Shown: positions 3,503-54,005, numbered from the stretch's first letter. The stretch: DNA of 64,000 bases from Syntrophales bacterium (GCA_030654195.1 JAURXV010000156.1:207-64206); one strand, 5' to 3'. A program made the numbers and translations. The notes: generated by a model not told the origin, from the sequence alone.

Positions 3503-4066
3503 ATGGCTGAAGAAGTGACCGAAGAGAGACTTCTGAACAAGATCCGCAGGGTGAAACTACTGATCCTGGATGTGGATGGGGTTCTGACCGATGGCCGGAT
3601 CGTCATCGACGATGCGGGGCTGGAGAGCAAGCAGTTCGATGTAAAGGACGGCCATGGCCTGAAAATTCTGATGAGATACGGAATCGGCGTGGCGCTGCTG
3701 ACCGGAAGGCGATCACGCGTGGTCGAACACCGCGCCGCCGATCTGGGGATCACCGAGGTTCATCAGGGGATCCGGAACAAGACCGAAGCCTTTGAGGAGA
3801 TTCTCAACCGGAGGCAAATCGCCCCGGAGGAGACGGCCTGTGTCGGGGATGATGTGGTGGATATCCCGCTCCTCAGGAGGGCAGGGTTTTCCGTGGCTGT
3901 GGCCGACGCCGTATTGGAGGCCCGGCAGATCGTCGATTATGTAACGTATCATCCTGGAGGCCGGGGGGCTGTTCGGGAGGTGTGCGAAGTGATCCTCAAG
4001 GCACAGAACCGATGGTCGGATGTGGCCGTGAGATATGAATTTGCGTGCTCTGGGGGACAGATTTAA
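3503..4066 (+). CDS. kdsC: KDO-8-phosphate phosphatase (HAD superfamily)
   Basis: HAD motif I LLILDVDGVLTDG and motif GDDVVDIPLL; KdsC-sized; sits next to kdsA and lptC. The last codons and the stop lie inside a 40-nt palindrome. Confidence 0.88.
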   Translation: MAEEVTEERLLNKIRRVKLLILDVDGVLTDGRIVIDDAGLESKQFDVKDGHGLKILMRYGIGVALLTGRRSRVVEHRAADLGITEVHQGIRNKTEAFEEILNRRQIAPEETACVGDDVVDIPLLRRAGFSVAVADAVLEARQIVDYVTYHPGGRGAVREVCEVILKAQNRWSDVAVRYEFACSGGQI

Positions 4067-4084
4067 ATCTGTCCCCCAGAGCAC
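4045..4084. repeat. Perfect 40-nt palindrome GTGCTCTGGGGGACAGATTT/AAATCTGTCCCCCAGAGCAC (GGGGACA...TGTCCCC family)
   Basis: Read directly: 20-nt arms with no loop. The central TTTAAA contains the kdsC TAA stop (4064-4066). Confidence 0.9.
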
Positions 4085-4086
4085 AG

Positions 4087-4113
4087 GAGGACACGCTGCG
4101 GCATCATGTCCCC
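4087..4113. repeat. 27-nt palindromic unit, degenerate copy (GAGGACACGCTGCGGCATCATGTCCCC)
   Basis: Two substitutions relative to the 27-mer GGGGACACGATGCGGCATCATGTCCCC found at 7764, 17973 and 24545. Confidence 0.8.
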
Positions 4114-4134
4114 TTCATGGCGCGACGTTTGACC

Positions 4135-4163
4135 TTTACATTCGCGGGCGCGGATGGTAGAAT
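4135..4163 (+). promoter_or_regulatory. Candidate sigma-70 promoter for lptC-lptA-lptB (TTTACA-17-TAGAAT, TG at -15)
   Basis: Hexamers read at 4135-4140 and 4158-4163 with a 17-nt spacer, between kdsC and lptC. Motif only, no experimental support. Confidence 0.4.
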
Positions 4164-4197
4164 TCCAGACAGGCGCGGAAGAACGCAGGGAGGCCAA

Positions 4198-4249
4198 GGG
4201 GGACATGATGCGGCATCATGACGGGGACACGATGCCGCATCATGTCCCC
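4198..4249. repeat. Tandem/nested 1.9-copy of the 27-nt palindromic unit
   Basis: GGGGGACATGATGCGGCATCATGAC followed by GGGGACACGATGCCGCATCATGTCCCC. Deleting 24 nt would restore a single perfect unit. Confidence 0.85.
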
Positions 4250-4255
4250 GGTGAG

Positions 4256-4846
4256 ATGAAGACAAAAAGAAAAACGGTGCTCATCGTCGCGATCCTTGCG
4301 GTGATTCTGTCCCTGGCCGTGATTTTCGTGATCGGCCTCAGGGTGGCGCCGGAAAAGGCGCTCCTGAAGATCATGGCGGACAAGGTTGACCTGCAGATCA
4401 AAAATGTCCGTTATACGGAGGTCGGGGATTCCGGCATGAAATGGGAGATCACCGCGGATACGGCGCGCTATCTGAAGAAGGAGAACCTGGCCCTCTTTGA
4501 GAAGGTGTCGGTCCGGCTGGTGATGAAGGACGGTCGGACCTTCGTGATGAACGGCGATCAAGGGCGGCTCGATACCCAGTCGCGGGACATGGAAATCGAC
4601 GGGAATGTCGGCATCGTTTCGGGAAACGGGGATCGCTTTGCGACGGACCGTCTTCGGTACCGGAATGCCGCCCGACGGATCGAAACAGACCAACCCGTCG
4701 CGATGGAAAACGGGAATGTCCGAATCAGCGGCGTCGGGATGATCTTTCATCTGGACGAGAGCAAGCTAACGCTGCTTTCGCAGATTCGGGCGAGCTCTGG
4801 GGACACCTTGCCGCAAGGTGTCCCCAAATGGGGGCAGGGAAAATAA
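4256..4846 (+). CDS. lptC: LPS export system protein LptC-like
   Basis: Single N-terminal TM helix (TVLIVAILAVILSLAVIFVIGL) followed by a beta-rich periplasmic domain. Position kdsC-[this]-lptA-lptB. Start is uncertain: in-frame ATGs at 4205/4208 lie inside the repeat. Confidence 0.7.
   Translation: MKTKRKTVLIVAILAVILSLAVIFVIGLRVAPEKALLKIMADKVDLQIKNVRYTEVGDSGMKWEITADTARYLKKENLALFEKVSVRLVMKDGRTFVMNGDQGRLDTQSRDMEIDGNVGIVSGNGDRFATDRLRYRNAARRIETDQPVAMENGNVRISGVGMIFHLDESKLTLLSQIRASSGDTLPQGVPKWGQGK
4799..4825. repeat. 27-nt palindromic unit, CCTTG subtype (GGGGACACCTTGCCGCAAGGTGTCCCC)
   Basis: Perfect 12-bp arms with loop CCG. Lies in the last 16 codons of lptC and 22 nt upstream of the lptA ATG. 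Confidence 0.88.
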
Positions 4847-4847
4847 G

Positions 4848-5408
4848 ATGTTAAAAAGTATCTTCCGAATCATCCTCTGCATCGGCGTTCTGACGACGAT
4901 CCCCTATCCGCCCCGGGACGCCCAGTGCGAGACAAAGCAGAAACCCGGGATCGAAAAGGAGCAGCCGATTCAGATCGTCTCCGACCGCCTGGATGCCTAC
5001 AACGAGAAACGGATGGTCGTTTTTTCGGGCAATGCCGTGGCTACGCAAGGCGCGCGGACGATCCGTGCCGAACGTCTGACGCTTTATTACAGGGATGATC
5101 AAAAGAAGACCGGGCGGTCGACCGTGGGGGGAGGGGGCGAAGGGACGGGGAATCTGGAAAGGATGGAGGCCAAGGGGCACGTTACGATCACGGAGGGCGA
5201 GCGGGTCGTGACCGGAGATGAGGCCGTCTTCGAACAGGATGCCCAGAAGATCACGATGACGGGCAGCGCCGTCCTGCGCGAGGGTGACAACATCATCCAG
5301 GGAGACAGGATCGTCGTATTCCTGAACGAAAACAGAGGAGTGGTCGAAGGCGCGGGGAGTCGGCGCGTGACGGCCACAATCTATCCGGGGGAGACGAAAA
5401 AACGGTGA
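4848..5408 (+). CDS. lptA: LPS transport periplasmic protein LptA (OstA-like)
   Basis: Signal peptide (MLKSIFRIILCIGVLTT) and OstA-N-like repeats (VVFSGNAVATQG..., ITMTGSAVLREGDN). Immediately precedes lptB. Confidence 0.8.
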   Translation: MLKSIFRIILCIGVLTTIPYPPRDAQCETKQKPGIEKEQPIQIVSDRLDAYNEKRMVVFSGNAVATQGARTIRAERLTLYYRDDQKKTGRSTVGGGGEGTGNLERMEAKGHVTITEGERVVTGDEAVFEQDAQKITMTGSAVLREGDNIIQGDRIVVFLNENRGVVEGAGSRRVTATIYPGETKKR

Positions 5409-5439
5409 CCTATTCCAGTCGGTATCATGGGTTCTTTTC

Positions 5440-6162
5440 ATGGGAAAACTGACGGCGACAGGCCTGATCAAGGTCTACAACCGACGACGGGTGGTCGATC
5501 GGATCGACCTTGAGATTAATCCCGGCGAGGTGGTCGGCCTCCTGGGACCGAACGGCGCCGGGAAGACGACGACCTTCTACATGATCGTCGGGCTGATCAA
5601 ACCGGATGGGGGGGCGATCTTCCTCGATGGCGAGGATCTGAGCCGCAGTCCGATGTATGTGCGGGCAAGAAAGGGGCTGAATTACCTGCCGCAGGAGCCC
5701 TCCATCTTCCGGAAACTGACGGTGCGGGAGAACATCATGGCCATCCTCGAAACGCTCACCATGGTCCCGGAAGAGAGAGAGGAGCGTCTGCACCAGCTTC
5801 TTGCGGAGCTGGATTTAACCCAAATATCCGACAACAGGGCCTATTCTCTGTCGGGAGGCGAACGGAGGCGTGTGGAGATCACGCGGGCGCTCGTTACCTC
5901 GCCGAAATATATTCTTCTCGATGAACCTTTCGCAGGGATCGATCCGCTGGCGGTGGCGGATATCGGGAAGATCATCGCCCGGCTGCGGACGAAGGGGATC
6001 GGGGTCATCATCTCCGACCACAACGTCCGGGAGACCCTTTCCGTCTGCGATCGGGCCTACATCGTCAACGAGGGGAAGGTCCTTGTGGAGGGATCGCCGG
6101 AGTTGATCGCGGGCTCCGAGATCGCGAGGAAAATCTATTTCGGCGACGATTTTAAATTCTGA
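5440..6162 (+). CDS. lptB: LPS export ABC transporter ATP-binding protein LptB
   Basis: Walker A GPNGAGKTT, ABC signature LSGGERRR, Walker B ILLDEPFAGIDP. Located upstream of rpoN. Confidence 0.95.
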   Translation: MGKLTATGLIKVYNRRRVVDRIDLEINPGEVVGLLGPNGAGKTTTFYMIVGLIKPDGGAIFLDGEDLSRSPMYVRARKGLNYLPQEPSIFRKLTVRENIMAILETLTMVPEEREERLHQLLAELDLTQISDNRAYSLSGGERRRVEITRALVTSPKYILLDEPFAGIDPLAVADIGKIIARLRTKGIGVIISDHNVRETLSVCDRAYIVNEGKVLVEGSPELIAGSEIARKIYFGDDFKF

Positions 6163-6191
6163 TCGGTCATGGAAGGCAGCGCAGTCGAAGC

Positions 6192-7655
6192 ATGGCATTT
6201 GAACTAAGACAGAATCTAAAACTGACCCAGCAATTGATCATGACACCGCAGCTTCAGCAGGCGATCAAGCTCCTGCAGTTGTCGCGACTGGATCTGGTCG
6301 ACATGGTCAACCAGGAGATGGAGGAAAATCCACTACTGGAAGAGGTCGTTTCCGATGAGGACCCCGAAGCCGAAAAAAAGATCGAACCCGCACAGACCGA
6401 GGAAGGCGATCGGGAAGAGAGCAAAACAGTCGAGCGGACAGGGGAGCTGACAGGCGAGGGGGACGGTCGGGAGGAGTTCGACTGGGACGGCTATCTGGAA
6501 GACTATGGGCCGATGGGGGTCACCTACGATCGGCAAGAGGGGACCGCTCCTTCCTGGGACAATCTCCTGGTCGTGAAAAACTCGCTTACGGACCATCTGA
6601 TGTGGCAGCTCCTTCTTTCTCGGTTTACCGAGGCTGAATACCGGATTGGCGAACAGATCATCGGCAACCTGGATCAGAACGGCTATCTGGCTGCCACACT
6701 GGATGAGATTGCCGTCCAGGAGAAGGTCGCGCCGGCCTTTGTAGAAGAGGTGCTGAAAAAGATTCAGGAATTCGATCCCGTCGGGATTGCCGCCCGCGAC
6801 CTTCGGGAGTGCCTGCTCATCCAGGCGAAGATGGTGGGGAATACGCGTTCCCTTGTGGAGCGGATTATCCTTGGCCATCTCAAGGATCTTGAAGTCAAGA
6901 ATTATCCCCGGATCGCCAGGAAATTGAAAGAGTCCCTCGATGACGTTCTGGCGGCCGTCGTGATCATAAGCCATATGGATCCCCATCCGGGGAGCATCTA
7001 CAATGAGGAACGCATCCAGGCGATCGTTCCCGATGTCTATGTCTTCAAGAGCGGCGATGATTACAAGATCGTTCTGAACGACGAGGGGCTTCCGCGACTT
7101 CGGATCAGCAATTTCTACCGGGAGATCATGGGCGGAATGAACGCCGGAGTGACGCGGGAAAACGGGAAAAAGTATATCAAGGAGCGAGTCCAGTCGGCAA
7201 CCTGGCTGATCAAGAGCATTCAGCAGCGGCAGAAGACGATCTACCGGGTTACCGAGAGCATCGTCCGGTTTCAGAGGGATTTTTTTGACCGGGGGATAAA
7301 CTCCATGAAGCCTTTGATCCTGCGGGACATCGCCGATGATGTGGAGATGCATGAATCCACGATCAGCAGGGTCGTAACGAACAAATACATGCATACGCCG
7401 CGGGGTCTCTTCGAGCTGAAATATTTCTTCGGCAGCGGCATTCACAAGCCCGGAAGCGACGACGTTTCATCCAAGAGCGTCCAGGATGATATCCGGAAGA
7501 TCATCGGCAAGGAAGATCCCCGCAAACCGTTCAGCGATCAGGTCATCGTGGCGCGTCTTGGGGATTCAGGGATCTCTATCGCCCGGCGGACGGTTGCGAA
7601 ATACAGGGAGATGATGGGAATCCTGCCCTCTTCCATGCGGAAGAAATATTTTTAA
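6192..7655 (+). CDS. rpoN: RNA polymerase sigma-54 factor
   Basis: Region I LKLTQQLIMTPQLQQAIKLLQLS, acidic region II, and C-terminal RpoN box ARRTVAKYRE. Confidence 0.97.
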   Translation: MAFELRQNLKLTQQLIMTPQLQQAIKLLQLSRLDLVDMVNQEMEENPLLEEVVSDEDPEAEKKIEPAQTEEGDREESKTVERTGELTGEGDGREEFDWDGYLEDYGPMGVTYDRQEGTAPSWDNLLVVKNSLTDHLMWQLLLSRFTEAEYRIGEQIIGNLDQNGYLAATLDEIAVQEKVAPAFVEEVLKKIQEFDPVGIAARDLRECLLIQAKMVGNTRSLVERIILGHLKDLEVKNYPRIARKLKESLDDVLAAVVIISHMDPHPGSIYNEERIQAIVPDVYVFKSGDDYKIVLNDEGLPRLRISNFYREIMGGMNAGVTRENGKKYIKERVQSATWLIKSIQQRQKTIYRVTESIVRFQRDFFDRGINSMKPLILRDIADDVEMHESTISRVVTNKYMHTPRGLFELKYFFGSGIHKPGSDDVSSKSVQDDIRKIIGKEDPRKPFSDQVIVARLGDSGISIARRTVAKYREMMGILPSSMRKKYF

Positions 7656-7661
7656 AAAGCG

Positions 7662-7690
7662 TTGACAAGGTAAAGAGATATCCGTATAGT
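7662..7690 (+). promoter_or_regulatory. Candidate sigma-70 promoter (TTGACA-17-TATAGT) for hpf-ptsN-hprK-rapZ
   Basis: Consensus -35 at 7662-7667, 17-nt spacer, TATAGT at 7685-7690. Begins 7 nt after the rpoN stop. Confidence 0.6.
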
Positions 7691-7716
7691 CCACCACTTT
7701 GCCGCCCGGCGGTCCA

Positions 7717-7791
7717 GGGGGACACGCCCAGCGATCTGGGGGACATGATGCTGCATCGTGCAGGGGGACACGATGCGGCATCATGTCCCCC
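7717..7791. repeat. Composite of three GGGGGACA-initiated units ending in a full 27-nt palindrome
   Basis: GGGGGACACGCCCAGCGATCT, then GGGGGACATGATGCTGCATCGTGCA, then GGGGGACACGATGCGGCATCATGTCCCCC. Positions 7764-7790 are identical to the ligA and hemW copies. Confidence 0.88.
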
Positions 7792-7817
7792 GAAATCAGA
7801 AACGGGAGGAACCGATC

Positions 7818-8354
7818 ATGAAGATTTCTGTGACATTCAGGAATGCGGAGGGTGAAACCTGGCAGAAGGAATATGTGGAAGAAAGACTGAAAAAACTGAA
7901 GAAATATATCGATAATCCGGTGGATGCCCGTGTTATCCTGTCGGTTGAAAAATTCCGGAATACGGCGGAAATCAATATGATGGCGAACGGGTTGAACATC
8001 TACGGCAAGGAAGAAGATAAGGATATGCATCTGGCCATCGACAACGCCATCGAAAAGATCGAGCGGCAGCTCAAGAAACGGAAGGAAAAGGTGCGCGGTT
8101 TCAAGACCAATCCTTCCCGAAGCGGAGAATTTGACGGAGAATCTGCTACGGAAGAGGGCGAGGAATCGCCAGATGCCCAGGTGGTCGAGACGCGCAAAGT
8201 GGTCTTGACGCCGATGTCTATTGATGACGCAGTCCTGGAAATGGAAACCACGAAAAACCGGTTTGTGATCTATCGCGACTCGTCCACCGAAAACGTCAAC
8301 GTCATCTATCGGCGTGAGGATGGGAAATTTGCGTTGATGGAGATCAGCCGTTGA
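7818..8354 (+). CDS. hpf: Ribosome hibernation promoting factor (long HPF type)
   Basis: MKISVTFRN... S30AE/HPF N-domain plus a C-terminal extension. RBS GGGAGGA at 7804-7810. Canonical position after rpoN. Confidence 0.9.
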   Translation: MKISVTFRNAEGETWQKEYVEERLKKLKKYIDNPVDARVILSVEKFRNTAEINMMANGLNIYGKEEDKDMHLAIDNAIEKIERQLKKRKEKVRGFKTNPSRSGEFDGESATEEGEESPDAQVVETRKVVLTPMSIDDAVLEMETTKNRFVIYRDSSTENVNVIYRREDGKFALMEISR

Positions 8355-8370
8355 GGTTTGGGGATAAAGC

Positions 8371-8832
8371 ATGAAAATCACGGAGATGCTCAAGCGCGAG
8401 TTCGTTCTTGAGCATTTGAAGGCAGCAAACAAGCGGGATGCGCTTGCGGAATTGGCGGGGGTTTTTGCACAGGGACGGATCAACGTTGATTCCGAGGCGA
8501 TGCTCCATGTCCTCCTGGAGAGGGAAAGGTTGGGGAGCACCGGCATCGGTGACGGGATCGCCATTCCCCACGGCAAACTCCCCGGACTCGAAGAGATGGT
8601 GGTCTCTTTCGGCAGGAGTCGGGAAGGGATCGCCTTCGAAGCGATGGACGGAAAGCCCGTACATCTCTTTTTTTTGCTGATGGCGCCCGAGAATTCGGCG
8701 GGCCAGCATCTCAAGGCGCTGGCGAAGATCTCCCGAATGCTGAAGGATGCGAACTTCCGAAAGAATCTTCTGGAAGCGAAGATGCATGAGGATCTCTTCC
8801 GGATTATCGCCGAAAAAGACGACGAAACGTGA
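8371..8832 (+). CDS. ptsN: PTS IIA-like nitrogen regulatory protein PtsN (EIIA-Ntr)
   Basis: EIIA(Fru/Ntr)-type sequence with active-site context GDGIAIPHGK. In the rpoN operon. Confidence 0.9.
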   Translation: MKITEMLKREFVLEHLKAANKRDALAELAGVFAQGRINVDSEAMLHVLLERERLGSTGIGDGIAIPHGKLPGLEEMVVSFGRSREGIAFEAMDGKPVHLFFLLMAPENSAGQHLKALAKISRMLKDANFRKNLLEAKMHEDLFRIIAEKDDET

Positions 8833-8851
8833 CCTGAATCAAGGGGCTCCT

Positions 8852-9724
8852 ATGAGGCCCGTAACGGTAAAAGAAATCCTGACATATGGGGAGAGACTTG
8901 GGATTACGGAAATGGTGGAACCTCCCGGCGCCCGTGGATCCGTCCGTCATCTGCTCCGGTATGCCGGGGGGGAATCCGGTCATGGCATGACGCCCTTCCC
9001 GCACTCCATGGTGATCATTCCGCGGACCGCGGCGGATGGGGCTTATGAAAACGGATGGAACAGATCTGTTCCCCCATCGCTCTTGCGGAATATCACCTGT
9101 TTGGCCCTGTCTGCGCAAAGGATAACCGTTTTTCTTCGGCAATTTTCGGAACGGACGGAGACGCCCATCTTTTCGTCGTGCTACGACGATTCATTGCTCC
9201 ACAGCCGTCTGACCGGCCTGCTCCGGGAGAGGGGTGAGCGGCAGGTCATGGTCCATGGCGTGCTCGTCCGGGTTTGGGGTCTCGGCGTTCTGCTCCTGGG
9301 TGAAAGCGGGATCGGAAAAACCGCCTGCGGTCTTGCCCTCATGGGCAAAGGCAATCGCTGGGTGGCGGATGATGCCGTCGTGCTGGAGGGAAGGGGAGAC
9401 GCCGTTTATGGGCGGGGCCATCAGAGAACCGCGGGGCGGATTGCCGTGCGGGGTCGGGGGGTTCTCCGTGCGGCAGATCTGCTCGGAATGGGGCGCCTCC
9501 TTCAGGAAACCCGTGTGGACGTGCTCGTCCGGCTTGTCCGTCGGTCTGAAAGAAATGCAGTACAAAAAGGAGAGTCATTTCAAGAGATTGTTGGAGTCTC
9601 TCTCCGCTGCAGAGATCTTGCGGCGGACGTTGATCCCCGGCGGGTGGCCGAACGGGTGACGGGTTATATTCACCCTCTTTCGGTCAAATCATCGGAAAAC
9701 ATAGTGCTGAGGACTGAGTGCTAA
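8852..9724 (+). CDS. hprK: HPr(Ser) kinase/phosphorylase
   Basis: P-loop GESGIGKT and an HprK C-terminal domain. ATG at 8852 follows AAGGGG. The ORF's 3' end runs into the heptamer repeat. Confidence 0.82.
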   Translation: MRPVTVKEILTYGERLGITEMVEPPGARGSVRHLLRYAGGESGHGMTPFPHSMVIIPRTAADGAYENGWNRSVPPSLLRNITCLALSAQRITVFLRQFSERTETPIFSSCYDDSLLHSRLTGLLRERGERQVMVHGVLVRVWGLGVLLLGESGIGKTACGLALMGKGNRWVADDAVVLEGRGDAVYGRGHQRTAGRIAVRGRGVLRAADLLGMGRLLQETRVDVLVRLVRRSERNAVQKGESFQEIVGVSLRCRDLAADVDPRRVAERVTGYIHPLSVKSSENIVLRTEC

Positions 9725-9810
9725 GTGCTGAGTAAAACATAGTGCTGAGTGTAAAAAAAAGTGCCAAGTACCGAGTGCCGAGTGCTAAGTGCTAAGTCCT
9801 CAGTACTATG
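9700..9810. repeat. Tandem heptamer array (TGCTGAG/TGCTAAG/TGCCGAG...) enclosed by a 16-bp inverted repeat
   Basis: About 12 heptamer units read directly, split by AAAACAT and an A8 run. Outer arms are CATAGTGCTGAGGACT and AGTCCTCAGTACTATG. Confidence 0.85.
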
Positions 9811-9835
9811 TACATCCGGACAAAGGGGGATCCGA

Positions 9836-12021: not shown

Positions 12022-12115
12022 AGACTCTTGGCCTCCTGGATGAACAGAGGTGCGGTATAGCCACTTTGCGAGCGCATTGCAAGGTCAAAAACCATTTCCG
12101 GACGGGAACCATAAC

Positions 12116-17324: not shown

Positions 17325-18644
17325 TCAAATCAGGGCCAGGCTGTCGGCGACGGCCATCCCGGCGCGCGTCGGCCGGAGAAATCCGTCGCGGATCTCCAGG
17401 AGCCCTTCCCCGGAGAGCCTCACGATCATATCCCGTTTGTCCGCGAGAAGATCCCGGCCGTAGCGGATCTTGAACGTCTCCAGGCAGATTCCCCGGCGCG
17501 TCCGGAAGCCGAGAAAGAGCGCCTCCAGACGGAGTTGTTCGTCATTCAGGATCTCCCTCGACTCGACCGGTTCCCGCCCCGATTCCAGATCGCCGATGTA
17601 GGCGTCGACGGAGCTGCGGTTCCAGCGACGCTCGCGCCCCGAAAAAGAGTGCGCGGCGGGACCGAGGCCCAGATAGGGGACGTGGCTCCAGTATTTGCGG
17701 TTGTGCCTCGATTCCCGGCCGGGGCGGGCGAAATTGGAGACCTCGTAATGGCGATAACCGCTCTCTTCCAGGATTTGAGCCGTCCTGAGAAAAAAGTCGG
17801 CCTGACGTGATTCACCGGGGAGGATGAGTTCGCCGAGTCGGCATCGCTTTGCGAGGGGGGTTTTCTCCTCCAGCGTGAGTTGATAGCAGGAGAGGTGGTC
17901 GGGATCGAGGCCGATGGCCGTATCCAGCGTGGCAAGCCATGTTGCAAAGTTGCGGTCCGCTTCCGTGCAAATGGGGACACGATGCGGCATCATGTCCCCA
18001 TTTGCTCCTCCTGCGGGGGAAGAGGGAAGACCGTAGATCAGATCCAGACCGATGTTCACGAAGCCGGTGTCGCGCACCTGTTGGATGGCGCCGATCGCCT
18101 GAAGGGCCGTATGGCGGCGGCCCAGCAGCGCAAGCGAATCGTCGTCGAAGGACTGGACGCCGATGTTCAGGCGGTTCACACCGGAGCGACGGAGCGACGC
18201 GAGGAGCCCTTCGGTGATGTCGGCGGGATTCGCCTCGACGGTGATCTCCGCGCCGGCTGCGATCGTAAAAGCGGTCCGGATGTCGGCGATGAGCCCTTCC
18301 AGATCCTCCTCAGGCAAAACGGAGGGTGTTCCCCCGCCGATGTAGAGCGTATCAAAAGAGGCGGCCCACCCCCGGTAGAGCGCCATTTCCCGGCGTAGGG
18401 CCGACCGGTAGGCGGGGATAAGGGAAAGGTCGGTGATGGAATAGAAACCGCAGTAGGCGCATTTCCGGAGGCAGAAGGGGATGTGGATGTAGAGCCCCGG
18501 GAGTTCATCCGGTTCCGTGGATTGTTCCGACGGACCTTTCCCCGTTGTCGGAGGCGTTTCTTCAGAAATTCGCCCTGCTGAGAAATCTAAAGAATCCCTT
18601 GGAAAGAATCCCGTTCCCGCGGTCTGAAAAGCCGGTCCGCTCAT
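17325..18644 (-). CDS. hemW: Radical SAM heme chaperone HemW / HemN-like (oxygen-independent coproporphyrinogen oxidase family)
   Basis: LYIHIPFCLRKCAYCGF (CxxxCxxC) and a HemN_C-like C-terminus. ATG 18644 overlaps the lepA stop as ATGA. Contains an in-frame palindromic element. Confidence 0.85.
   Translation of the reverse strand: MSGPAFQTAGTGFFPRDSLDFSAGRISEETPPTTGKGPSEQSTEPDELPGLYIHIPFCLRKCAYCGFYSITDLSLIPAYRSALRREMALYRGWAASFDTLYIGGGTPSVLPEEDLEGLIADIRTAFTIAAGAEITVEANPADITEGLLASLRRSGVNRLNIGVQSFDDDSLALLGRRHTALQAIGAIQQVRDTGFVNIGLDLIYGLPSSPAGGANGDMMPHRVPICTEADRNFATWLATLDTAIGLDPDHLSCYQLTLEEKTPLAKRCRLGELILPGESRQADFFLRTAQILEESGYRHYEVSNFARPGRESRHNRKYWSHVPYLGLGPAAHSFSGRERRWNRSSVDAYIGDLESGREPVESREILNDEQLRLEALFLGFRTRRGICLETFKIRYGRDLLADKRDMIVRLSGEGLLEIRDGFLRPTRAGMAVADSLALI
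17967..18005. repeat. Intragenic copy of the 27-nt palindrome (core 17973-17999), extended to a 39-nt palindrome by GCAAAT/ATTTGC
   Basis: Core is identical to 24545-24571 and 7764-7790. It is 39 nt, or 13 codons, read as [13 protein letters not shown] in hemW. Confidence 0.9.
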
Positions 18645-24144: not shown

Positions 24145-24250
24145 CCCCTCCCTTGACGGGAGGGGGGCAGGGGGAGGGTGAAGCAACAACTTGGCGTCTT
24201 CGTGGTAACTTTTCCCCCCACCCTAACCCTCCCCCGCCAAAGGGGAGGGG
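24145..24250. repeat. G/C-run-rich interspersed element, copy 1 (inverted relative to 28707-28814)
   Basis: CCCCTCCCTTGACGGGAGGGGGGCAGGGGGAGGGTGAAGC...CCCCCCACCCTAACCCTCCCCCGCCAAAGGGGAGGGG. Both ends match the reverse complement of the 28.7-kb copy. Confidence 0.85.
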
Positions 24251-24268
24251 ATTGATTTGAGCTTGTAT

Positions 24269-26356
<2,088 letters not shown>

Positions 26357-28673: not shown

Positions 28674-28706
28674 TATATGGAGGTAATCGCAAAAGTACCA
28701 ATAAAT

Positions 28707-28814
28707 CCCCTCCCCCCGGGCGGGGGTGGGTTAGGGGGGGGGGGGGAGGTTGCCATGCAATCAGCATGTTGCAGCTTCACCCACCCCCTAACCCCCTCCC
28801 GTCAAGGGAGGGGG
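28707..28814. repeat. G/C-run-rich interspersed element, copy 2 (contains a G13 homopolymer at 28734-28746)
   Basis: The reverse complement aligns with 24145-24250 at both ends. The central roughly 30 nt diverges. Confidence 0.85.
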
Positions 28815-32725: not shown

Positions 32726-32733
32726 GAAAGACC

Positions 32734-32762
32734 TTGACAATTCACCCAGCCTGGTTTATGAA
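32734..32762 (+). promoter_or_regulatory. Candidate promoter of tRNA-fMet (TTGACA-17-TATGAA)
   Basis: Hexamers at 32734-32739 and 32757-32762, about 30 nt before the tRNA 5' end. Same architecture as the tRNA-Asn promoter. Confidence 0.55.
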
Positions 32763-32793
32763 TCGCTGTCCAAAGGGAAAACGTGAACGGTGA

Positions 32794-32870
<77 letters not shown>

Positions 32871-32881
32871 TAGAATTACAA

Positions 32882-32908
32882 GGGGTTAGATGAGAATCTA
32901 ACCCCTTT
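32882..32908 (+). terminator. Intrinsic terminator after tRNA-fMet
   Basis: GGGGTTAGAT-GAGA-ATCTAACCCC followed by TTTGGTTTG. Confidence 0.6.
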
Positions 32909-41612: not shown

Positions 41613-41737
41613 GCGCGCTGGACATTTTTCGACCCTGCAACGGAAAATGGGGACAGCGCCCCTATTTTCCTGCGGCAAAATAGGGGCGCTGTCCCTAATT
41701 TTCCGGCAGGGTACCACGAAAAATCTCCAATGCGCGC
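41613..41737. repeat. Extended palindromic element of about 125 nt whose core is a GGGGACAG...TGCGGCA...CTGTCCC hairpin (41649-41695)
   Basis: The core has 19-nt perfect arms (GGGACAGCGCCCCTATTTT/AAAATAGGGGCGCTGTCCC). The outer arms GCGCGCTGGACATTTTTCGACCCTGC... and ...GCAGGGTACCACGAAAAATCTCCAATGCGCGC are imperfectly complementary. Confidence 0.85.
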
Positions 41738-42374: not shown

Positions 42375-42379
42375 CAAAA

Positions 42380-42448
42380 GGACTAAGTGCTGAGTGCTAA
42401 GTGCTGAGTGTTTTTCTTCTCAGTCCTCAGTCCTCAGCACTTGCTTTT
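42380..42448 (+). terminator. Heptamer-repeat hairpin, probable terminator of rubrerythrin
   Basis: GACTAAG-TGCTGAG-TGCTAAG-TGCTGAG, loop TGTTTTTCTT, then CTCAG-TCCTCAG-TCCTCAG-CACTT followed by GCTTTT. The 24-position stem has 3 mismatches and 2 G-U pairs. Confidence 0.5.
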
Positions 42449-45190: not shown

Positions 45191-45201
45191 TATGGGGGGC
45201 T

Positions 45202-47496: not shown

Positions 47497-47594
47497 GATC
47501 ATCTCCGTTGATTGTGCAACGCCATCATGATGCCCGGTCGCTATCGGAAATATTCCGATAGATCGCATCTATGATTAAAGCTAAATCATCGTGA

Positions 47595-47624
47595 ATAATA
47601 ATTCAATATGAATTTCGATTGCAA
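47595..47624 (-). promoter_or_regulatory. Candidate promoter (TTGCAA-18-TATTAT) for the GAF-GspE gene
   Basis: Minus-strand hexamers in the AT-rich gap between glyS and the ATPase gene. Motif only. Confidence 0.35.
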
Positions 47625-47698
47625 GCCTGTTTTTCGTCGCCCGGTCCTCCGGGGATCCGGGAGCCTCCGAACGGACCTGTGTGATCCGGAGAGTCCGG

Positions 47699-49777
47699 TC
47701 ATCCTTGCGATTCCGTAACAATTCTTGAAAAGTCGGCGACATCGTGGAAGAGGGTGGAAATCTCCTCTAACAGGGAGAGCCGGTTGAAACGGACCTTTTC
47801 ATCCTCCGCCATCACCAGAACCGCCTCGAAAAAGGCATCGACCGGTTCCCTGAGCCGGGCCAGATCGAAGAGAACGGCGGAATAATCCCCCCCGGAGATG
47901 TGGGTCAAGACCGTCTCGCGGATCTTCAGGAACGCCTCGTGGAGATTTTTTTCCTCCGGTCCGGAAAGCAGGGCCGGATCGACGGCGCCGTTTTGAAAAC
48001 CGCGGATGATGTTGACCACCCGCTTGAAGGCGATCGCGAGCGGCTGAAAGTCCGAATGGGACTTGAAGTCCGCCATCGCCCGGATCTTATCATCCGCCGC
48101 GACCAAGCTGTCTATGCCGGTGGCCAGGATGGCGTCGACGACGTCATAGGGGCGGCCCTGCGAGATGAGCTGGTTCTCGAACCGACCCTTGAAGAATTCC
48201 AGCACGGCCGTTTTTGTTTCATCGGAGGGGCGCTTCAGCAGTGGTCCGAGGATGGCGAGGCTCTCATCGATCAGGGAACCCAGTGAAAAAGAATAGCGTT
48301 TCGCCAGAATGATGTTGATCACGCCGAGCGCCTGGCGACGCAACGCGTAGGGATCGGCCGTTCCGGTCGGGATCAATTCGACGCCGAAGAAGCCGCAGAT
48401 CGAATCCGTCTTGTCGGCGATGCTGACGATGGCCCCCTCGCTGGTCTCGGGGAGGTCGCCTCCAGCCGCCGTCGGCAGGTAATGCTCATGGATAGCCTGC
48501 GCCACAACGGGATCCTCGCCGGCCAGCAGCGCGTATTCGCGCCCCATGATGCCCTGCAGTTCGGCGAATTCGCCGACCATCTGGGTGTCCAGATCCGTCT
48601 TTGCGAGCAGTGCGGCGCGATCCACCCGGCCCGCGAGGGTCGGATCGACACGGTTGGCAATCCAGGCGGCGAGTTTCCGGAAGCGCATGACCTTTTCATG
48701 GGATGTTCCGAGAAGGGTATGGAAGACCACTTTCTTGAGATCGGCCACGCGCCGGTCGAGGGGGATCTTCCGGTCCGCCTCGAAGAAGAACCGCGCATCG
48801 GAAAGACGGGCGCGGATCACCTTCTCGTTTCCGCGCTTCACGACCGCGGGATCGCGGGCCAGGGTATTGTTGATCGTGATGAAGTGGGGGAGCAGCGCGC
48901 CTCTATCATCCACCACCGGAAAATATTTCTGGTGGGAGATCATCGTGGTGATGAGCACCTCCTGCGGAAGCTTCAGGTATTCCCGGTCAAAATTCCCGCA
49001 GACGACCGTCGGATACTCGGTGAGGAAGGTCACCGTTTCCAGAAGTTCCTCGGACGGAAGGACGCGGCCGCCGACGGTCGCCGCCGCCTTCCGGGTCTCC
49101 TCGCGGATGATTTCCTTTCGCTCTCTCGGATCGACGATTACGAAACGGTTACGCGTCCCGGTAAGATATTCTTCCCGGCTGCCGACCGGGAAGGAGTCCG
49201 GGCTCATAAAGCGGTGGCCACGGCTGGTGTTGCCGCTTTCGATATTTGCGATCCGGAACGGGACGATCCGGCCGTCGAAAAGGGCCAGGATCCAGTGGAT
49301 CGGTCTTGCAAAGCGGAACTCCTGGTCGGACCAGCGCATCGATTTCCGGAAGGGGATCCCGGTGATGACCTTCGTCAGGATTGCCGGGAGGAGGCCCTCC
49401 GTCGCCTCGCCGAGGATCTTCTTTCGGGCGCAGAGGTACTCCCCCTTCTCCGTCGTTACCCGCTCCAGTTCGGCGATATCGAGGTTCTGCCCTCTGGCAA
49501 AACCGACGGCGGCGCGGGAGGGGTTTCCCTGCTCGTCGAAGGCGACCCTCGCGGCCGGGCCCAGCTTTTCGATCACCTGATCCTCCTGCTGTTCGGCCAG
49601 GTCGTCCGCCGTCAGGAAGAGCCGGCGGGGCGTCCCCATCGTCCGGATCTCCCCGTGACGGATCCGGTTTGCCGCCAGTTCTCCGCGGGCGATCTCCTCC
49701 AAATCCCTGAGCGCCTTCGGCAGAAAGGCGGCCGGGATCTCTTCCGTTCCGATTTCCAAGAGCAGTTCCTTGCCCAT
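47699..49777 (-). CDS. glyS: Glycine-tRNA ligase beta subunit
   Basis: MGKELLLEIGTEEIPA... N-terminus and the overall GlyS length and pattern. Directly downstream of glyQ. Confidence 0.95.
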   Translation of the reverse strand: MGKELLLEIGTEEIPAAFLPKALRDLEEIARGELAANRIRHGEIRTMGTPRRLFLTADDLAEQQEDQVIEKLGPAARVAFDEQGNPSRAAVGFARGQNLDIAELERVTTEKGEYLCARKKILGEATEGLLPAILTKVITGIPFRKSMRWSDQEFRFARPIHWILALFDGRIVPFRIANIESGNTSRGHRFMSPDSFPVGSREEYLTGTRNRFVIVDPRERKEIIREETRKAAATVGGRVLPSEELLETVTFLTEYPTVVCGNFDREYLKLPQEVLITTMISHQKYFPVVDDRGALLPHFITINNTLARDPAVVKRGNEKVIRARLSDARFFFEADRKIPLDRRVADLKKVVFHTLLGTSHEKVMRFRKLAAWIANRVDPTLAGRVDRAALLAKTDLDTQMVGEFAELQGIMGREYALLAGEDPVVAQAIHEHYLPTAAGGDLPETSEGAIVSIADKTDSICGFFGVELIPTGTADPYALRRQALGVINIILAKRYSFSLGSLIDESLAILGPLLKRPSDETKTAVLEFFKGRFENQLISQGRPYDVVDAILATGIDSLVAADDKIRAMADFKSHSDFQPLAIAFKRVVNIIRGFQNGAVDPALLSGPEEKNLHEAFLKIRETVLTHISGGDYSAVLFDLARLREPVDAFFEAVLVMAEDEKVRFNRLSLLEEISTLFHDVADFSRIVTESQG

Positions 49778-49866
49778 GAATGTTCTCCGATCCTCGTTCC
49801 GCCCGGATTGGCTAATTTGCGGGCTTTATCGATATCAATGCCGGGGAAATGGATGCGCTTCCGGCT

Positions 49867-50739
49867 TTATTTCCGGTTCAGCAGCGGGTAGCCCATCTCC
49901 TCCCGCTGCCTGAGGTAACCGTCGGCGCTCAGACGGGCGAGGTTCCGGACGCGGCCGATGTAGCTTGTCCGCTCGGCCACGCTGATTGCCCCCCGGGCAT
50001 TCAGCAGGTTGAAGGTGTGGGAACACTTGAGACAATGGTCGTACGTCGGCAGGACGAGACCTTTTTCCGCCGCACGCATCCCTTCGGCCTCGTACATGTC
50101 GAAGCGTTGTCGGAGCTGGGAGATGTCGGCGGTCTCGAAGTTGTAAACGGACCATTCCACCTCGCTCTGGTGGTGGATGTCGCCGTATTTGATTCCCTGG
50201 GTCCATTCGAGGTCATAGACGTTGTCGATCCCCTGGATGTACATCGCGATCCGCTCGATGCCGTAGGTAAGCTCCGCGCAGACGGGGCGGCAATCGAAAC
50301 CGCCGACCTGCTGGAAGTAGGTGAACTGGGAGATCTCCATCCCGTCGAGCCAAACCTCCCAGCCGAGACCCCATGCGCCGACGGTGGGCGATTCCCAGTC
50401 ATCCTCCACGAAACGGATGTCGTGCTCCAACGGGTCGATGCCGAAGCTCATCAGCGAGTCGAGGTAGAGCTGCTGGATGTTCGGAGGCGACGGCTTCATG
50501 ATCACCTGGTACTGATAGTAGTACTGGAGGCGGTTCGGATTTTTTCCGTAGCGGCCGTCCGTGGGTCTGCGGGAGGGTTCCACATAGGCCACGTTCCAGG
50601 GTTCCGGTCCCAAGGCCCGCAGAAAGGTGGCCGGGTTGAGGGTGCCCGCCCCCTTCTCGACGTCGTAGGGCTGCTGGATGACGCACCCCTGGCCCGCCCA
50701 GTACCGCTCGAGGGCGAAAATCAATTCCTGAAAGGTCAC
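49867..50739 (-). CDS. glyQ: Glycine-tRNA ligase alpha subunit
   Basis: [35 protein letters not shown], highly conserved GlyQ sequence. GTG start after GGAGGAGA. Confidence 0.97.
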
Positions 50740-50917
50740 ATCTCCTCCTACAGGTCAAAAATGGTTTCGCAAACGGTTCGATGGATTGGGCTGAACCGCG
50801 GACCGCCTCCGGCCCATCTCCCGGGGTAGCCCCGTTATTTCTTGATATCATGACTGTTTTTACGGGCAGGTTCTTAACACGCCACCCGGCGCATGTCAAT
50901 ACGAAATCGCGGCGGTT

Positions 50918-51694
50918 TTAGATCCCCAGGCGGCGGATTTCATTAAGGACGTGAACCGATTTCAGCTCCCGTCCGAGGAGGTGGCGGATGAAATGGGCGA
51001 GGAGGCGGCGGCTTTCATCTGCGGACTGATCCGAGAGGAGCAGGCGGCCCAGACGGTCGATCTCCATCTCGCGTCCTAAGAGCAGCGTCCGGATTGTTCC
51101 GAGAGATACGGGGATCGCGTCCCGGCTCCCGGGTGCGCAGACGCTGCAGGTCAGACCACCTTTGGCGGCGTCGAAACGGTAGGCAACCTCTTTTACGATC
51201 GGCGTCTTGCAGGAAATGCAGCGGTCCAGAACCGGGTCATAGCCGGAGATCCGGAGGAGACGGATTTCGAAAAAACGGAGCAACGCCTCCGTCAAGGCGG
51301 TTTCCTCTAACAGCCGGAGAAAATCGAGCAGAAGGCAAAATGAGGCCTCGCTCTTCTTGTCTTCCGGCGTGAACTGATCCGTGAGATCGATCAGGCAGGA
51401 GGCGGCCAGTGTTTTTCCCAAATCGGAGCGGATGCCGGGAAAATGCGAGAGGACATCGCACCCTTCGATCAGGGCCAGGCTGTCCGGACTTCTCCGCGAA
51501 AAGAGAATCCGGGAGCAGCAAAAGGGCTCGATCGCGTTTGCAAAACGTTTCCGGCTTCGTCGGGCCCCTTTGGCGATTCCGCGGATCTTCCCGAAGTCCG
51601 CGGTGCAGAAGGTCACGATCCGGTCCGATTCGCCGTAGTCGATCGCCCGTAGAACAATCGCCTCCGTCCGCAGCTCTGTCCTTGACTGGATCAT
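50918..51694 (-). CDS. recO: DNA repair protein RecO
   Basis: OB-fold N-terminus (TEAIVLRAIDYGESDRIVTF) and zinc motif C.SC.....C..C. Confidence 0.9.
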   Translation of the reverse strand: MIQSRTELRTEAIVLRAIDYGESDRIVTFCTADFGKIRGIAKGARRSRKRFANAIEPFCCSRILFSRRSPDSLALIEGCDVLSHFPGIRSDLGKTLAASCLIDLTDQFTPEDKKSEASFCLLLDFLRLLEETALTEALLRFFEIRLLRISGYDPVLDRCISCKTPIVKEVAYRFDAAKGGLTCSVCAPGSRDAIPVSLGTIRTLLLGREMEIDRLGRLLLSDQSADESRRLLAHFIRHLLGRELKSVHVLNEIRRLGI

Positions 51695-51695
51695 G

Positions 51696-53000
51696 TCAGC
51701 AGTCGCGATAGCGGATCTCGCCGCCGACGATCGTCAGGACCGCCTTTCCCTTCAGGGTCCAGTTGTGAAAGGGGGTGTTCTTCCCCCGGGAACGGAAAAG
51801 TCCGCGATCCACGGTCCATTCCCTCTGCGGGTCGATGACCGTGATATCGGCGTCGGCGCCGTCGGCAAGGGTCCCCTTCGGGATGCGGAGGATCCGGGCG
51901 GCGTTGACGGTCATCTTTTCGATCAGTTCCGGAAGCGTGAGAAGACCCTCTTCAACCAGGCCAAGCGAGAGGGCCAGGGAGGTTTCCAGACCCGTGATGC
52001 CGCTTGCCGCGAAGTCGAATTCAACCTCCTTATCGGTCCGGGCGTGGGGCGCGTGGTCGCTTGCGATCACATCGATCGTGCCGTCGCGGAGCCCTTCCCG
52101 GACGGCGTCGCGATCTTCCGCGCCGCGCAGCGGGGGGTAGACCTTCGTGGCGGTATCGAAGCTTCGAACGGCCTCGTCGGTCAGCGTGAAGTAATGGGGC
52201 GCCGTCTCTGCGGTGACAAGGACTCCGCGGGCTTTGGCCTCGCGGATCAGGCGGACCGCGCCGGCCGTGCTGACGTGGGCAATGTGCAGATGCGCCCCGG
52301 TGTATTCGGCGAGGAGGATATCCCGGGCGACCATAACCTCTTCCGCGATCCCGGGGATGCCCGGGAGGCCGATTTCGGTGGAGACGAAGCCCTCGTGCAT
52401 CATCCCGCCCGCGGAAAGGTTCCGGTCCTCGCAGTGCGCGATGACCGGCATGTCCAGCGAGGATGCGTATTCGAGCGCCCGGCGCATCAGGGCGGCGTTC
52501 ATGACCGGCCTGCCGTCATCGGAAAAACCGATGGCGCCGGCGTCCTTCAGGTCCCAATACTCACAGAGGAGGGCGCCCTCCGACTTCAGGCTGATCGCCG
52601 CGATCGGATAGACGTTTGCCAGGCCGCATTCCGCAGCCTTTCTCCGGATGAATTCAGTGACGGACCGGTTGTCATTCACGGGGTTCGTGTTGGGCATGCA
52701 GGCGACAGAGGTGAAGCCGCCCGCCACGGCCGCCTCGCTTCCGGAGGCGATCGTCTCCCTGTACTCGAAGCCGGGCTCCCGCAGGTGGGTGTGCATGTCG
52801 ATCAGGCCGGGGACGACGATCTTTCCTCGGAGATCGAGGATCTCCATGCCGGGGGGAACCCCTTTTCCTCTGCCCTTGCCGGTCTGCTGCAGCCCGCCGC
52901 CGATTCCGGCGATTTTCCCGTTTTCGATCAGCAGGTCCCCCGTTCCGTCCACTTTCCGCGAGGGGTCCACCACCCTAACGCCTTTCAGTAAGAGAGTCAT
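51696..53000 (-). CDS. pyrC: Dihydroorotase
   Basis: [10 protein letters not shown] metal motif, the carboxylated-Lys region, and the ASDHAPH motif. Confidence 0.93.
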
Positions 53001-53920
53001 GTGGTTCCTCCTGTCAACAGATAGAGAAGGGCCATCCGGACGGCCACGCCATTCGTGACCTGTTCGAGGATGATCGAATGGGGGCCGTCGGCGAGATCCG
53101 GAGAGATCTCCACCCCGCGGTTGATCGGTCCCGGATGCATGATGAGAACGTCCTTCCGGGCGAAACCGATGTTCTTGCGGTTGAGAGAGAAATACTGCGC
53201 GTATTCCCGCAGTGACGGAAAGATGTTCTGCTTTTCCCGCTCCGTCTGGATACGGAGCATCATGATGATGTCCGCGTCCCGGATCGCCTCCTCGATGCGC
53301 ATATGGACGACGACCCCCATCTTCTCGATGCCGCGGGGGATCATCGTGGCCGGGCCGGAAACGCAGACCTGTGCCCCCATCTTCGTCAGGCCGTGGATGT
53401 TGGAGCGGGCGACGCGGCTGTGGGCAATGTCGCCGACGATCGCCACCTTCAGCCCGGCGATTCTCCCTCTCTTCGCCCGGATCGTCATCATGTCCAAGAG
53501 CGCCTGGGTCGGGTGTTCATGCGCCCCGTCGCCGGCGTTGATGATCGACTGCCGGAGGATGCCGGCCAGCATGTGGGGCGCCCCGGCGGCGCTGTGGCGG
53601 ATCACGATGACATCTGGATTCATGGCCTCCAGGTTTTTCGCCGTGTCGATCAGGGTTTCTCCCTTCACGACGCTGCTGGTCGAAGCCGAGATGTTGATCG
53701 TATCCGCGCTCAGGCGCTTGGCGGCGATCTCGAAGGAGGTCCTCGTCCGGGTGCTGGCCTCATAGAAAAGGTTGATGACGGTCTTTCCGCGGAGGGTGGG
53801 AACCTTCTTGATCTCCCGGGTGGATACCTCGATGAAGGAATCCGCCGTTTCGAGAATCAGGTCGATCTCCTGCACGGAGAGTTCCTGGATGCCGAGGATG
53901 TCTTTCCGGTTCAGTTTCAT
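52997..53920 (-). CDS. pyrB: Aspartate carbamoyltransferase catalytic subunit
   Basis: [18 protein letters not shown] and HPGP motifs. 4-nt overlap with pyrC. Confidence 0.96.
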
Positions 53921-53978
53921 GGTTCAAGCCTCGCATGATCGGGAGTGTCTTCGCAAAACGACCGCGCGTAACATGTAT

Positions 53979-54005
53979 GGGGACACCTTGCGGCAAGGTG
54001 TCCCC
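53979..54005. repeat. 27-nt palindromic unit, CCTTG subtype (GGGGACACCTTGCGGCAAGGTGTCCCC)
   Basis: Perfect 12-bp arms. Differs from 4799-4825 only at the central base. Intergenic between pyrR and pyrB. Confidence 0.88.

Follow-up and report, generated by a model that had tools for sequence, protein, structure and literature searches.

What kind of element places the same 27-nucleotide (nt) palindrome at site after site in one stretch of bacterial DNA, ahead of genes, between them and, in frame, inside them? The stretch that raises this question, the window, is 64,000 nt long and comes from a Syntrophales bacterium; all positions given below count from its first letter, and loci beyond it carry L numbers. 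A first-pass annotation had likened the palindromes to repetitive extragenic palindromic (REP) sequences and bacterial interspersed mosaic elements (BIMEs). In our analysis the 27-mers emerge as a real, dynamic and apparently undescribed family of the known type represented by REPs and REP doublets forming hairpins (REPINs), with insertions that are tolerated in coding sequence. The family displays hairpin covariation, derived and polymorphic insertions and inverted duplication of flanking sequence, and it has sister hairpins that abut Y1 transposase genes. We consider it probable that the 27-mers are non-autonomous REP-type elements that multiply within genomes, most likely by means of a Y1 enzyme resembling the REP-associated tyrosine transposases (RAYTs) and acting in trans, and that the copies are later remodelled by template switching.

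Seven full copies of the 27-mer family (family A) occur in the window, where shuffled sequences predict none, and all follow the form GGGGACAC-NN-TGC-S-GCA-NN-GTGTCCCC. Three of them (7764, 17973 and 24545) are the identical 27-mer GGGGACACGATGCGGCATCATGTCCCC, those at 4223 and 4087 depart from it by one and two mismatches, and a second subtype, GGGGACACCTTGCSGCAAGGTGTCCCC, distinguished by CT/AG, stands at 4799 and 53979; to this point the first-pass annotation had read the copies correctly. A covariance model made from 35 distinct copies and run over the window with filters off returned exactly these seven full copies, together with partial ones at 4204-4220 and 7744-7760 and a single weak match at 4053-4076.

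The genes around the copies were assigned by Pfam; an exact-protein look-up with the rpoN product of the window yielded no record. The copy with two mismatches (4087-4113, GAGGACACGCTGCGGCATCATGTCCCC) lies between a kdsC-like gene and lptC and has orthologues with variants in L121, L152, L156, L168, L178 and L179. Closer to lptC, a truncated tandem copy of 24 nt (4199-4222, GGGGACATGATGCGGCATCATGAC) runs directly into a full copy with a central C (4223-4249), which ends 6 nt upstream of the lptC ATG (4256), and a copy of the CT/AG subtype (4799-4825) is in frame in the 3' end of the same gene. Between rpoN and hpf lies a cluster (7718-7790) composed of the left arm of an inverted flank duplication (7718-7738, GGGGACACGCCCAGCGATCTG), a truncated tandem copy of 25 nt (7739-7763, GGGGACATGATGCTGCATCGTGCAG) and an exact 27-mer (7764-7790), the last downstream of a promoter-like site, TTGACA-17-TATAGT (7662-7690), and ahead of the hpf ATG (7818). 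Since this cluster and the copies at 4199-4249 are each downstream of a promoter-like site (at 4135-4163 in the second case), they would be in the hpf and lptC leaders. Two further exact copies are in frame in minus-strand genes, one in hemW (17967-18005, with the core at 17973-17999 and palindromic flanks GCAAAT/ATTTGC) and one in the HhH-BRCT linker of ligA (24545-24571). The remaining copy, of the CT/AG subtype (53979-54005), occupies the spacer between a pyrR-like phosphoribosyltransferase gene (stop 54023) and pyrB (start 53920), both on the minus strand. The in-frame genic position of three copies had escaped the first-pass annotation; of its tandem partial copies, those at 4199-4222 and 7739-7763 stand, but the segment at 7718-7738 belongs to the flank duplication and its GGGGACAC start is fortuitous.

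Known classes of structured sequence did not account for the copies. Rfam at gathering thresholds identified two tRNAs in the whole window and no match to the 27-mers, a permissive Rfam scan of 3950-7900 gave only chance matches to miRNA-like hairpins, and a full-text literature search for 13-mers of the element found no paper. No window copy was called terminator-like, T-tracts being absent from all of them, and the spacing is not the regular one of CRISPR arrays, as copies are either kilobases apart or directly abutting. The idea of a DNA uptake sequence was rejected, since outside the palindromes the single arms show no enrichment (13+13 heptamers, mostly within copies).

The unit is a perfect palindrome of 13+1+13 nt that would fold, whether as RNA or as single-stranded DNA, into a hairpin of 12-13 bp, and substitutions among its copies argue for selection on this pairing. 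In the 35 distinct variants, 97.6% of the stem cells are paired, as against 37-60% in slid controls. Pair 9-19 is CG in 16 variants and GC in 16, pair 10-18 is AU in 24 and UA in 8, and none of 500 shuffles reaches the observed covariation; pair 8-20 also covaries and is frequently G.T. These covarying internal pairs support the 12-13 bp hairpin. At the stem's foot, seven base pairs (GGGGACA/TGTCCCC) are invariant, and the upper stem varies while staying paired; even the arm has a compensatory variant in L152, GGGGAGA...TCTCCCC, in which C-G has become G-C. Pairing extends beyond the core in hemW, where the flanks covary among the window, L106 and L109 (GCAAAT/ATTTGC, GCAAAT/ATTTAC and CGTAAAT/ATTTACG). 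Folded as single-stranded DNA, copies have energies of -8.4 to -13.3 kcal/mol. At the centre, G and C are about equally frequent and A or T rare, and the base differs between orthologues: the copy at 4799 has C in the window and G in four relatives (L121, L152, L168 and L179), which fits loop flipping. The C.A/G.T asymmetry that the first-pass annotation noted in the common 27-mer is real and maps to pair 8-20. The five window copies of this asymmetric subtype share one chromosomal orientation; the defined orientation deduced from them does not hold generally beyond the window, where about 35 asymmetric copies follow neither GC skew nor gene strand.

If the palindrome were ancestral local structure, it should be confined to the window or conserved at the same positions in distant relatives. 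Neither is the case. At least 104 genome stretches contained the core in a one-genome-per-species scan, as did at least 120 stretches in a metagenome scan restricted to one of its subtypes, and copies are common to close relatives only, the corresponding sites of more distant orthologues being without them. At 93-95% identity, JAHIMW01 and several JGI contigs are the closest relatives of the window. Among the matches listed, the core occurs in metagenome-assembled genomes (MAGs) labelled Syntrophaceae or Syntrophales, Deltaproteobacteria, Elusimicrobia (three MAGs) and 'Ca. Poribacteria' (JACRIR01) as well as in unclassified ones (CAYVDS01 and others); these labels are the depositors', and the only checks on them were GC content (49-65%) and the low identity of proteins between genomes. 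In IMG/VR the core is present in only 13 stretches, within predicted viral contigs (L243-L255) that may be true phages, prophage borders or host DNA.

Two forms of the element can be distinguished by their surroundings. In the Syntrophales-like and Elusimicrobia MAGs the bare 27-mer predominates. In CAYVDS01 and JACRIR01 a conserved flank rich in A+T (GAATTA, GAATAA or GATTTT) adjoins the core, the palindrome reaches a median of 8-9 nt past the core, and the core is embedded in a mosaic repeat of about 100 nt. This mosaic unit is common to both MAGs at 77-86% identity, the proteins of the two being at most about 46% identical, and in L085, L097, L063, L075, L038, L096, L026, L061 and L036 it holds a second conserved module (…GGGGCGTTTCTTCCACGATTAACCGCGCCGCAGGCGTGGTCAGGCGCTCCTAAGAAAC…). 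Neighbouring copies in L097, L045, L009, L018 and L085 are separated by genes of ordinary metabolism, and no transposase is among these.

The two forms also differ in position relative to genes. Genes beyond the window were called with a crude codon-usage gene finder of our own and orthologous duplicates are included, so the counts that follow are approximate. Copies in CAYVDS01 and JACRIR01 lie in unidirectional (38), convergent (15) and divergent (3) spacers, with convergent ones in excess, and two are genic. Genic copies number 28 among the 138 of the first set of loci; 20 of the 28 are in frame 0, and 26 lie outside these two MAGs, among the 63 copies found there. In the metagenome set of 175 copies, 65 are in gene interiors, 8 at gene 3' ends and 13 near predicted starts; 73 are inside genes, in frames 37:20:16. 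The intragenic share outside CAYVDS01 and JACRIR01 is thus about 40%, with about half of the coding copies in frame 0, and by these crude gene calls the mostly extragenic position typical of REPs is seen in those two MAGs and not in the Syntrophales-like and other genomes.

How such an insert can persist in a coding sequence is illustrated by the three genic copies of the window. Frame 0 of the 27-nt unit encodes nine residues without a stop codon and, the unit being palindromic, gives G-D-x-x-(P/R/Q)-x-x-V-P whichever strand is read. In LigA the insert adds seven residues, GDMMPHR(V), in 10 of 121 aligned sequences, that of the window included; insert-free LigAs of 70-95% identity have x-T/V/A-P at the site. 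At the DNA level the empty site reads ATTACCCCC in L082, GTATCACCC in L107 and GTGACCCCC in L108, and the filled site of the window, L105 and L106 reads (A/G)TC followed by the 27-mer, a net gain of 21 nt, with the flanks of the window and L082 identical. The insert-bearing LigAs are scattered on a neighbour-joining tree, and all have the same flank and the same asymmetric variant, so one event may have been spread by recombination. In HemW the copy is located between the Radical_SAM and HemN_C domains, at a point where canonical HemW reads DLIYGVPGQ-xMDxWL without an insert and the clade of the window has a hypervariable one. The element is read in frame 0 in 15 HemW sequences (again including that of the window) and in frame 1, as GHDAASCP, in sequence P0163, and L109 has it in both frames, 68 nt apart. 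Radical SAM open reading frames (ORFs) of L010, L039 and L081 cluster with hemW, are not its orthologues and were set aside as uninformative on the insert. Other HemW lineages (P0124, P0126, P0134, P0137, P0149, P0152 and others; L110, 10001-11275) carry a different insert of about 30 residues (…TGGTKPPSSPAGGA…) at the same position, which marks the site as a general insertion hot spot rather than one specific to the 27-mer. The third copy follows the end of the Pfam domain of LptC, in the tail ...SGDTLPQGVPKWGQGK*; it is kept in L121, L152, L168 and L179, and the tail changes fast. Because only 10 of the 121 LigAs have the insert and canonical HemW lacks it, the ligA and hemW inserts are derived, and those of LigA, HemW and LptC are in-frame, peptide-adding insertions absent from orthologues, of the kind known from intragenic REPs and Rickettsia palindromic elements (RPEs).

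Turnover of the element was evident among relatives of 80-95% identity. Empty sites, which a dispersed element should leave in close genomes, were found in L082, in L178 and in the window itself: L046 is filled where the window is empty, with a net difference of 18 nt, L014 is filled at a site beside 41737 that is empty in the window, and L156 is filled just 5' of lptC where L178 is empty. At the site of 4199-4249, just 5' of lptC, the window and the L152 and L168/L179 lineages have a 24-nt partial and a full copy, L121 and L156 a single copy and L178 none; one 24-nt tandem partial copy distinguishes the near-identical L168 and L179 from each other. The hpf leader contains a single copy followed by CTGATCGTCGGGCGGGT, the right-hand sequence only, in L152; in L121 and L147 it reads ACCCGCCCGGCGATCTG[core]CAGATCGCCGGGCGGGT, a 17-nt inverted duplication of unique flank, and in the window it has the left arm only and a partial copy. 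Nested copies and half copies are common among the loci. The possibility that a pre-existing terminator loop had served as target at the acyP/aminotransferase site was unsupported, as element-free relatives are without the flanking stem there.

A candidate for the mobilising enzyme comes from sister hairpins headed GGGACAG, which share only the stem base with the 27-mer and are represented in the window at 4045-4084 and 41642-41704. The first of these is a perfect palindrome of 40 nt (GTGCTCTGGGGGACAGATTTAAATCTGTCCCCCAGAGCAC), as the first-pass annotation had described it; its GGGACAG head and want of a TGCSGCA centre remove it from the 27-mer family and place it in a sister family, and the covariance model matches it weakly (E 0.019). 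Its core is also found in L055, L067, L156 and L178. The stop codon (TAA, 4064-4066) of the upstream ORF, of the HAD/KdsC-like type, falls at the centre of this palindrome, relatives stop six codons earlier at GCATGA, and the tail looks like a read-through into the palindrome. The second, a REPIN-like hairpin ('B2', GGAAAATGGGGACAGCGCCCCTATTTTCC-TGCGGC-AAAATAGGGGCGCTGTCCCTAATTTTCC), belongs to the sister family TTAGGGACAGNGCCCTATT and forms the apex of a longer hairpin at 41613-41737. The form of about 125 nt reported there is present but composite, and is part of a sister family, not of the 27-mer family. Its outer arms (…GCGCGCTGGACATTTTTCGACCCTGCA … GGCAGGG..CC.CGAAAAATCTCCAATGCGCGC), within a non-coding gap of about 570 nt and without an Rfam match, are kept in L014 (3630-3769), of a Syntrophus MAG, around a different inner part, and may be a separate conserved long hairpin.

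The hairpin at 41642-41704 aligns with hairpins that flank Y1 genes and have the consensus TAATTAGGGACAG[A/C]GCCC(C)TATT…AATAGGGGC[T/G]CTGTCCCTAATTA. Contig L112 carries five sister-family hairpins, one 27-mer and a Y1 transposase ORF with HVHIV and YVELNPVRAGL motifs, which matches E. coli TnpA-REP (query sequence confirmed as that of PDB 4ER8) with an E of 6e-9; the best 120 homologues listed all have PF01797, and several are labelled Syntrophales, Syntrophobacterales or Smithellaceae. A sister-family arm directly abuts the Y1 stop codon in five of five independent loci (L112, L232, L233, L242 and L234-241, the last one locus present in eight samples). Upstream, an arm or full hairpin is found in three of the four loci examined (L233, L234-241 and L242), L112 ending at the contig edge, and no family motif occurs in the 160 nt upstream of the Y1 gene of L232. 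The sister family has an NTAG (TTAG, ATAG or GTAG) overlapping the stem; the 27-mer has the same stem base throughout and in CAYVDS01 and JACRIR01 shares with it a GAAAAT-N-GGGACA head. The neighbours of the Y1 genes in L232, L233 and L242 are of toxin-antitoxin or defence type (AbiEii, MazE/PIN pairs, ParE/HTH, HepT/NTP_transf_2 and AAA_14-DUF4143).

Published REP behaviour (PMC3733652, PMC3116915) is matched by a stem base that never varies, an upper stem at liberty to change as long as it pairs, clustering of copies, mosaic units and, for the long form of the element, a bias to intergenic positions; hairpin covariation, tandem and truncated units, the mosaic of about 100 nt and the spacer preference in two genomes bear out the kinship with REPs and BIMEs that had first been proposed. 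In the mechanism that we envisage, a single-copy Y1 (HUH) RAYT-like transposase would act in trans on the hairpin when the DNA is single-stranded, the candidate being the Y1 enzyme flanked by the sister GGGACAG family in related Syntrophales. Replication-linked template switching would then reshape the copy, perfecting and extending the palindrome by inverted copying of the flank, flipping the central base and yielding 24-nt tandem partials and deletions. Because the unit is 27 nt long and free of stops in frame 0, coding inserts would be tolerated and would persist in the surface linkers of LigA, HemW and LptC. We infer the mobilisation by a Y1 enzyme, by analogy with the sister family, as well as the single-stranded substrate and the part of template switching in the secondary changes.

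Several observations weigh against this reading. The link to a transposase runs only through the sister family: a Y1 hidden Markov model (HMM) run over 1.64 Mb, comprising the window and 242 loci, found no Y1 gene flanked by the 27-mer itself and no hit besides the known sister-family loci. It had none in the window, where no Y1/RAYT ORF was found, in line with the first-pass annotation, and the E. coli TnpA-REP query and a motif regular expression found no RAYT in the first 105 sequences. The 27-mer has no tag: around 146 copies, searched to a distance of 8 nt, GTAG appeared a single time and CGTC a few times. Junctions of filled and empty sites are not a clean 27 nt, the net gain being 18-22 nt and a handful of target bases having been replaced, and G or C runs are present in the empty alleles that were closely inspected (ligA, hemW and the L046/window pairs); judged by sequence, such junctions are unlike precise peel-and-paste transposition and could result from microhomology-primed copying. 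The LigA phylogeny is ambiguous, in that homologous recombination would fit it as well as repeated transposition. Finally, the element is in MAGs labelled as different phyla, labels checked through low cross-genome protein identity.

Much of this would be expected if the element spread without any transposase, through template switching or gene conversion, a nascent strand that ends in a G or C run annealing to the GGGG or CCCC end of a copy, copying through it and returning, and the same process extending and perfecting palindromes. Such spread would explain the runs at empty sites and the overlap at the CCCC end of the fills, the inverted duplication of unique flank in L121 and L147, the tandem partials by which L168 and L179 differ, and a central base that is G or C about equally, as loop flipping predicts; in CAYVDS01 and JACRIR01, moreover, the palindrome runs 2-4 non-conserved bases past the conserved flank, and no cognate transposase was found for the 27-mer in the 1.64 Mb. 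Local remodelling is explained well in this way. The same process is a poorer explanation of the hundreds of copies, dispersed over distant lineages, that share an invariant stem base of 7 bp; the sister family, whose stem base is identical, clearly has a Y1 partner, and insertions exist at sites of low homology, such as the pyrR-pyrB spacer and the lptC tail. As a full account we regard transposase-free spread as unlikely; still, the untidy junctions, flank inversion-duplication and loop flipping point to template switching as at least a second mechanism and possibly the main one.

Selection by the host for a functional structure, be it a terminator or attenuator, an mRNA-stabilising or processing signal, or a binding site for a nucleoid or topology protein, appears a still weaker candidate. 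It could draw on the many CAYVDS01 and JACRIR01 copies that carry both A- and T-tracts (AGAAAATC...GATTTTCT) and show a preference for convergent and unidirectional spacers, as bidirectional terminators do, on the two window clusters in leaders just downstream of promoter-like sites, on stems kept by compensatory change, and on the frequent G.T pairs, which have been taken as a hint of a role in RNA (PMC3733652). A purely functional reading fails for the window, since no copy there has a T-tract and three are coding; terminators would be harmful in the coding sequences that hold about 40% of the copies outside CAYVDS01 and JACRIR01, presence and absence vary at the same genes among close relatives, and orientation is unlinked to transcription. 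Later exaptation may have occurred; it is compatible with the REP-type reading and is no substitute for it. We give very little credence to the idea that the 27-mer is a minimal MITE (miniature inverted-repeat transposable element) or an excision footprint, in which two abutted 13-bp terminal inverted repeats (GGGGACACNNTGC termini) of a DDE-type insertion sequence were left by excision or mobilised as terminal repeats only. The perfect 13+1+13 architecture and the solo half-copies that stop exactly at the centre (…ATGC) in L008, L041, L055 and L073 suit this idea; against it, copies have no direct target-site duplications, their flanks being inverted or unrelated, an all-against-all BLAST of the first 111 loci fetched and the window revealed no longer element with these 13-mer ends, and the internal covariation implies selection on pairing and not on a fixed transposase-binding sequence.

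Placed beside known systems, the 27-mer resembles REP/BIME and REPIN-RAYT sequences (PMC3116915, PMC3337134, PMC3479197, PMC3733652) in being short, G+C-rich, palindromic and of high copy number, in having sub-families with alternative complementary stem residues, frequent G.T pairs and tandem and mosaic clusters, and in its preference, in CAYVDS01 and JACRIR01, for unidirectional and convergent spacers; the sister family at 41642-41704, whose relatives abut PF01797 genes resembling that of E. coli TnpA-REP, has the arrangement of a REPtron. It differs from them in lacking a GTAG/CGTC tag, in a stem of 12-13 bp instead of the usual 6-9 bp, in the absence from the 1.64 Mb of a cognate RAYT tied to the 27-mer itself, in an intragenic share near 40% in Syntrophales-like genomes, and in the presence of its core in MAGs labelled as several phyla, REPIN-RAYT systems being described as mostly vertically inherited. 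In-frame intragenic REPs have been published before, one of them in the DNA ligase gene of Opitutus terrae (PMC3733652, Di Nocera et al. 2013), and the copies studied here resemble these and the RPEs in adding short peptides, often to replication or repair genes, in double insertions within one gene and in inserts at ORF ends. The 27-mer family is unrelated in sequence to RPEs, its single unit of 27 nt encodes nine residues, and its carriers are free-living anaerobes. RPE-1, at 100-150 nt, is longer.

Untagged REP-like stem-loop families are listed for M. tuberculosis, D. radiodurans, Bordetella, Brucella and cyanobacteria (PMC3733652), and like them the 27-mer is dispersed and small, with no terminal tetranucleotide and no proven mobilising enzyme; its sequence appears to be different. 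With MITEs (PMC10969869) it shares a non-autonomous, hairpin-forming and dispersed nature and the capacity to alter coding sequences, and it departs from them in having neither target-site duplications nor sequence between the inverted repeats and in a length far below their usual size. What makes the family unusual is its perfect 27-nt palindrome, its high intragenic share, the use of frame 0 in about half of its coding copies and the same core in MAGs labelled as distant phyla. Closest to the 27-mer in size are said to be the very small nested repeats of cyanobacteria that Elhai and colleagues reportedly described in 2008.

Other repeats of the window are distinct from these hairpins. An intergenic repeat of about 110 nt, rich in G and C runs (…CCCCTCCCTTGACGGGAGGGGGG…CCCTAACCCTCCCCCGCC…GGGGAGGGGATT) and unrelated to the 27-mer, is present at 24145-24257 and, inverted and at about 80% identity, at 28700-28813; L082 has it as well, and L003 and L012 have it in part. 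Two intergenic places, 9696-9811 and 42378-42448, have runs of heptamer-like tandem repeats (AGTGCTA/GAGTGCT…) that are related to each other both directly and in inversion. L106 has a phage-type integrase gene and an HTH_17 gene (1668-3074) beside the homologue of the tRNA-Met region of the window (32729-32908), an arrangement that suggests an element integrated at that tRNA in this relative.

The hairpins lengthen ORFs, shift apparent starts and stops and break assemblies, as seen in the kdsC-like stop, the lptC tail and leader copies read as coding, and knowledge of the 27-mer family improves the annotation of Syntrophales, Elusimicrobia and related MAGs. The 27-mer is a well-sampled natural case of small palindromes placed in frame in essential proteins, and since filled and empty alleles coexist among close relatives, the tolerance of inserts and the growth of palindromes could be studied directly. 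A bolder possibility, to which we assign a low probability, is that of a self-propagating palindrome without a dedicated transposase. Replication template switching would seed it at G or C runs, its flanks would be duplicated in inverted orientation as it grew, and its loop would flip; it may also have crossed phyla (Syntrophales, Elusimicrobia and others) and would repeatedly give DNA ligase and other essential proteins a G-D-x-x-P/R-x-x-V-P loop. It would, if true, be a coding-compatible selfish element distinct from the vertically inherited REPIN-RAYT systems. The occurrence of one core in MAGs labelled as distant lineages offers a concrete test of strict vertical inheritance for REP-type elements and their Y1 transposases.

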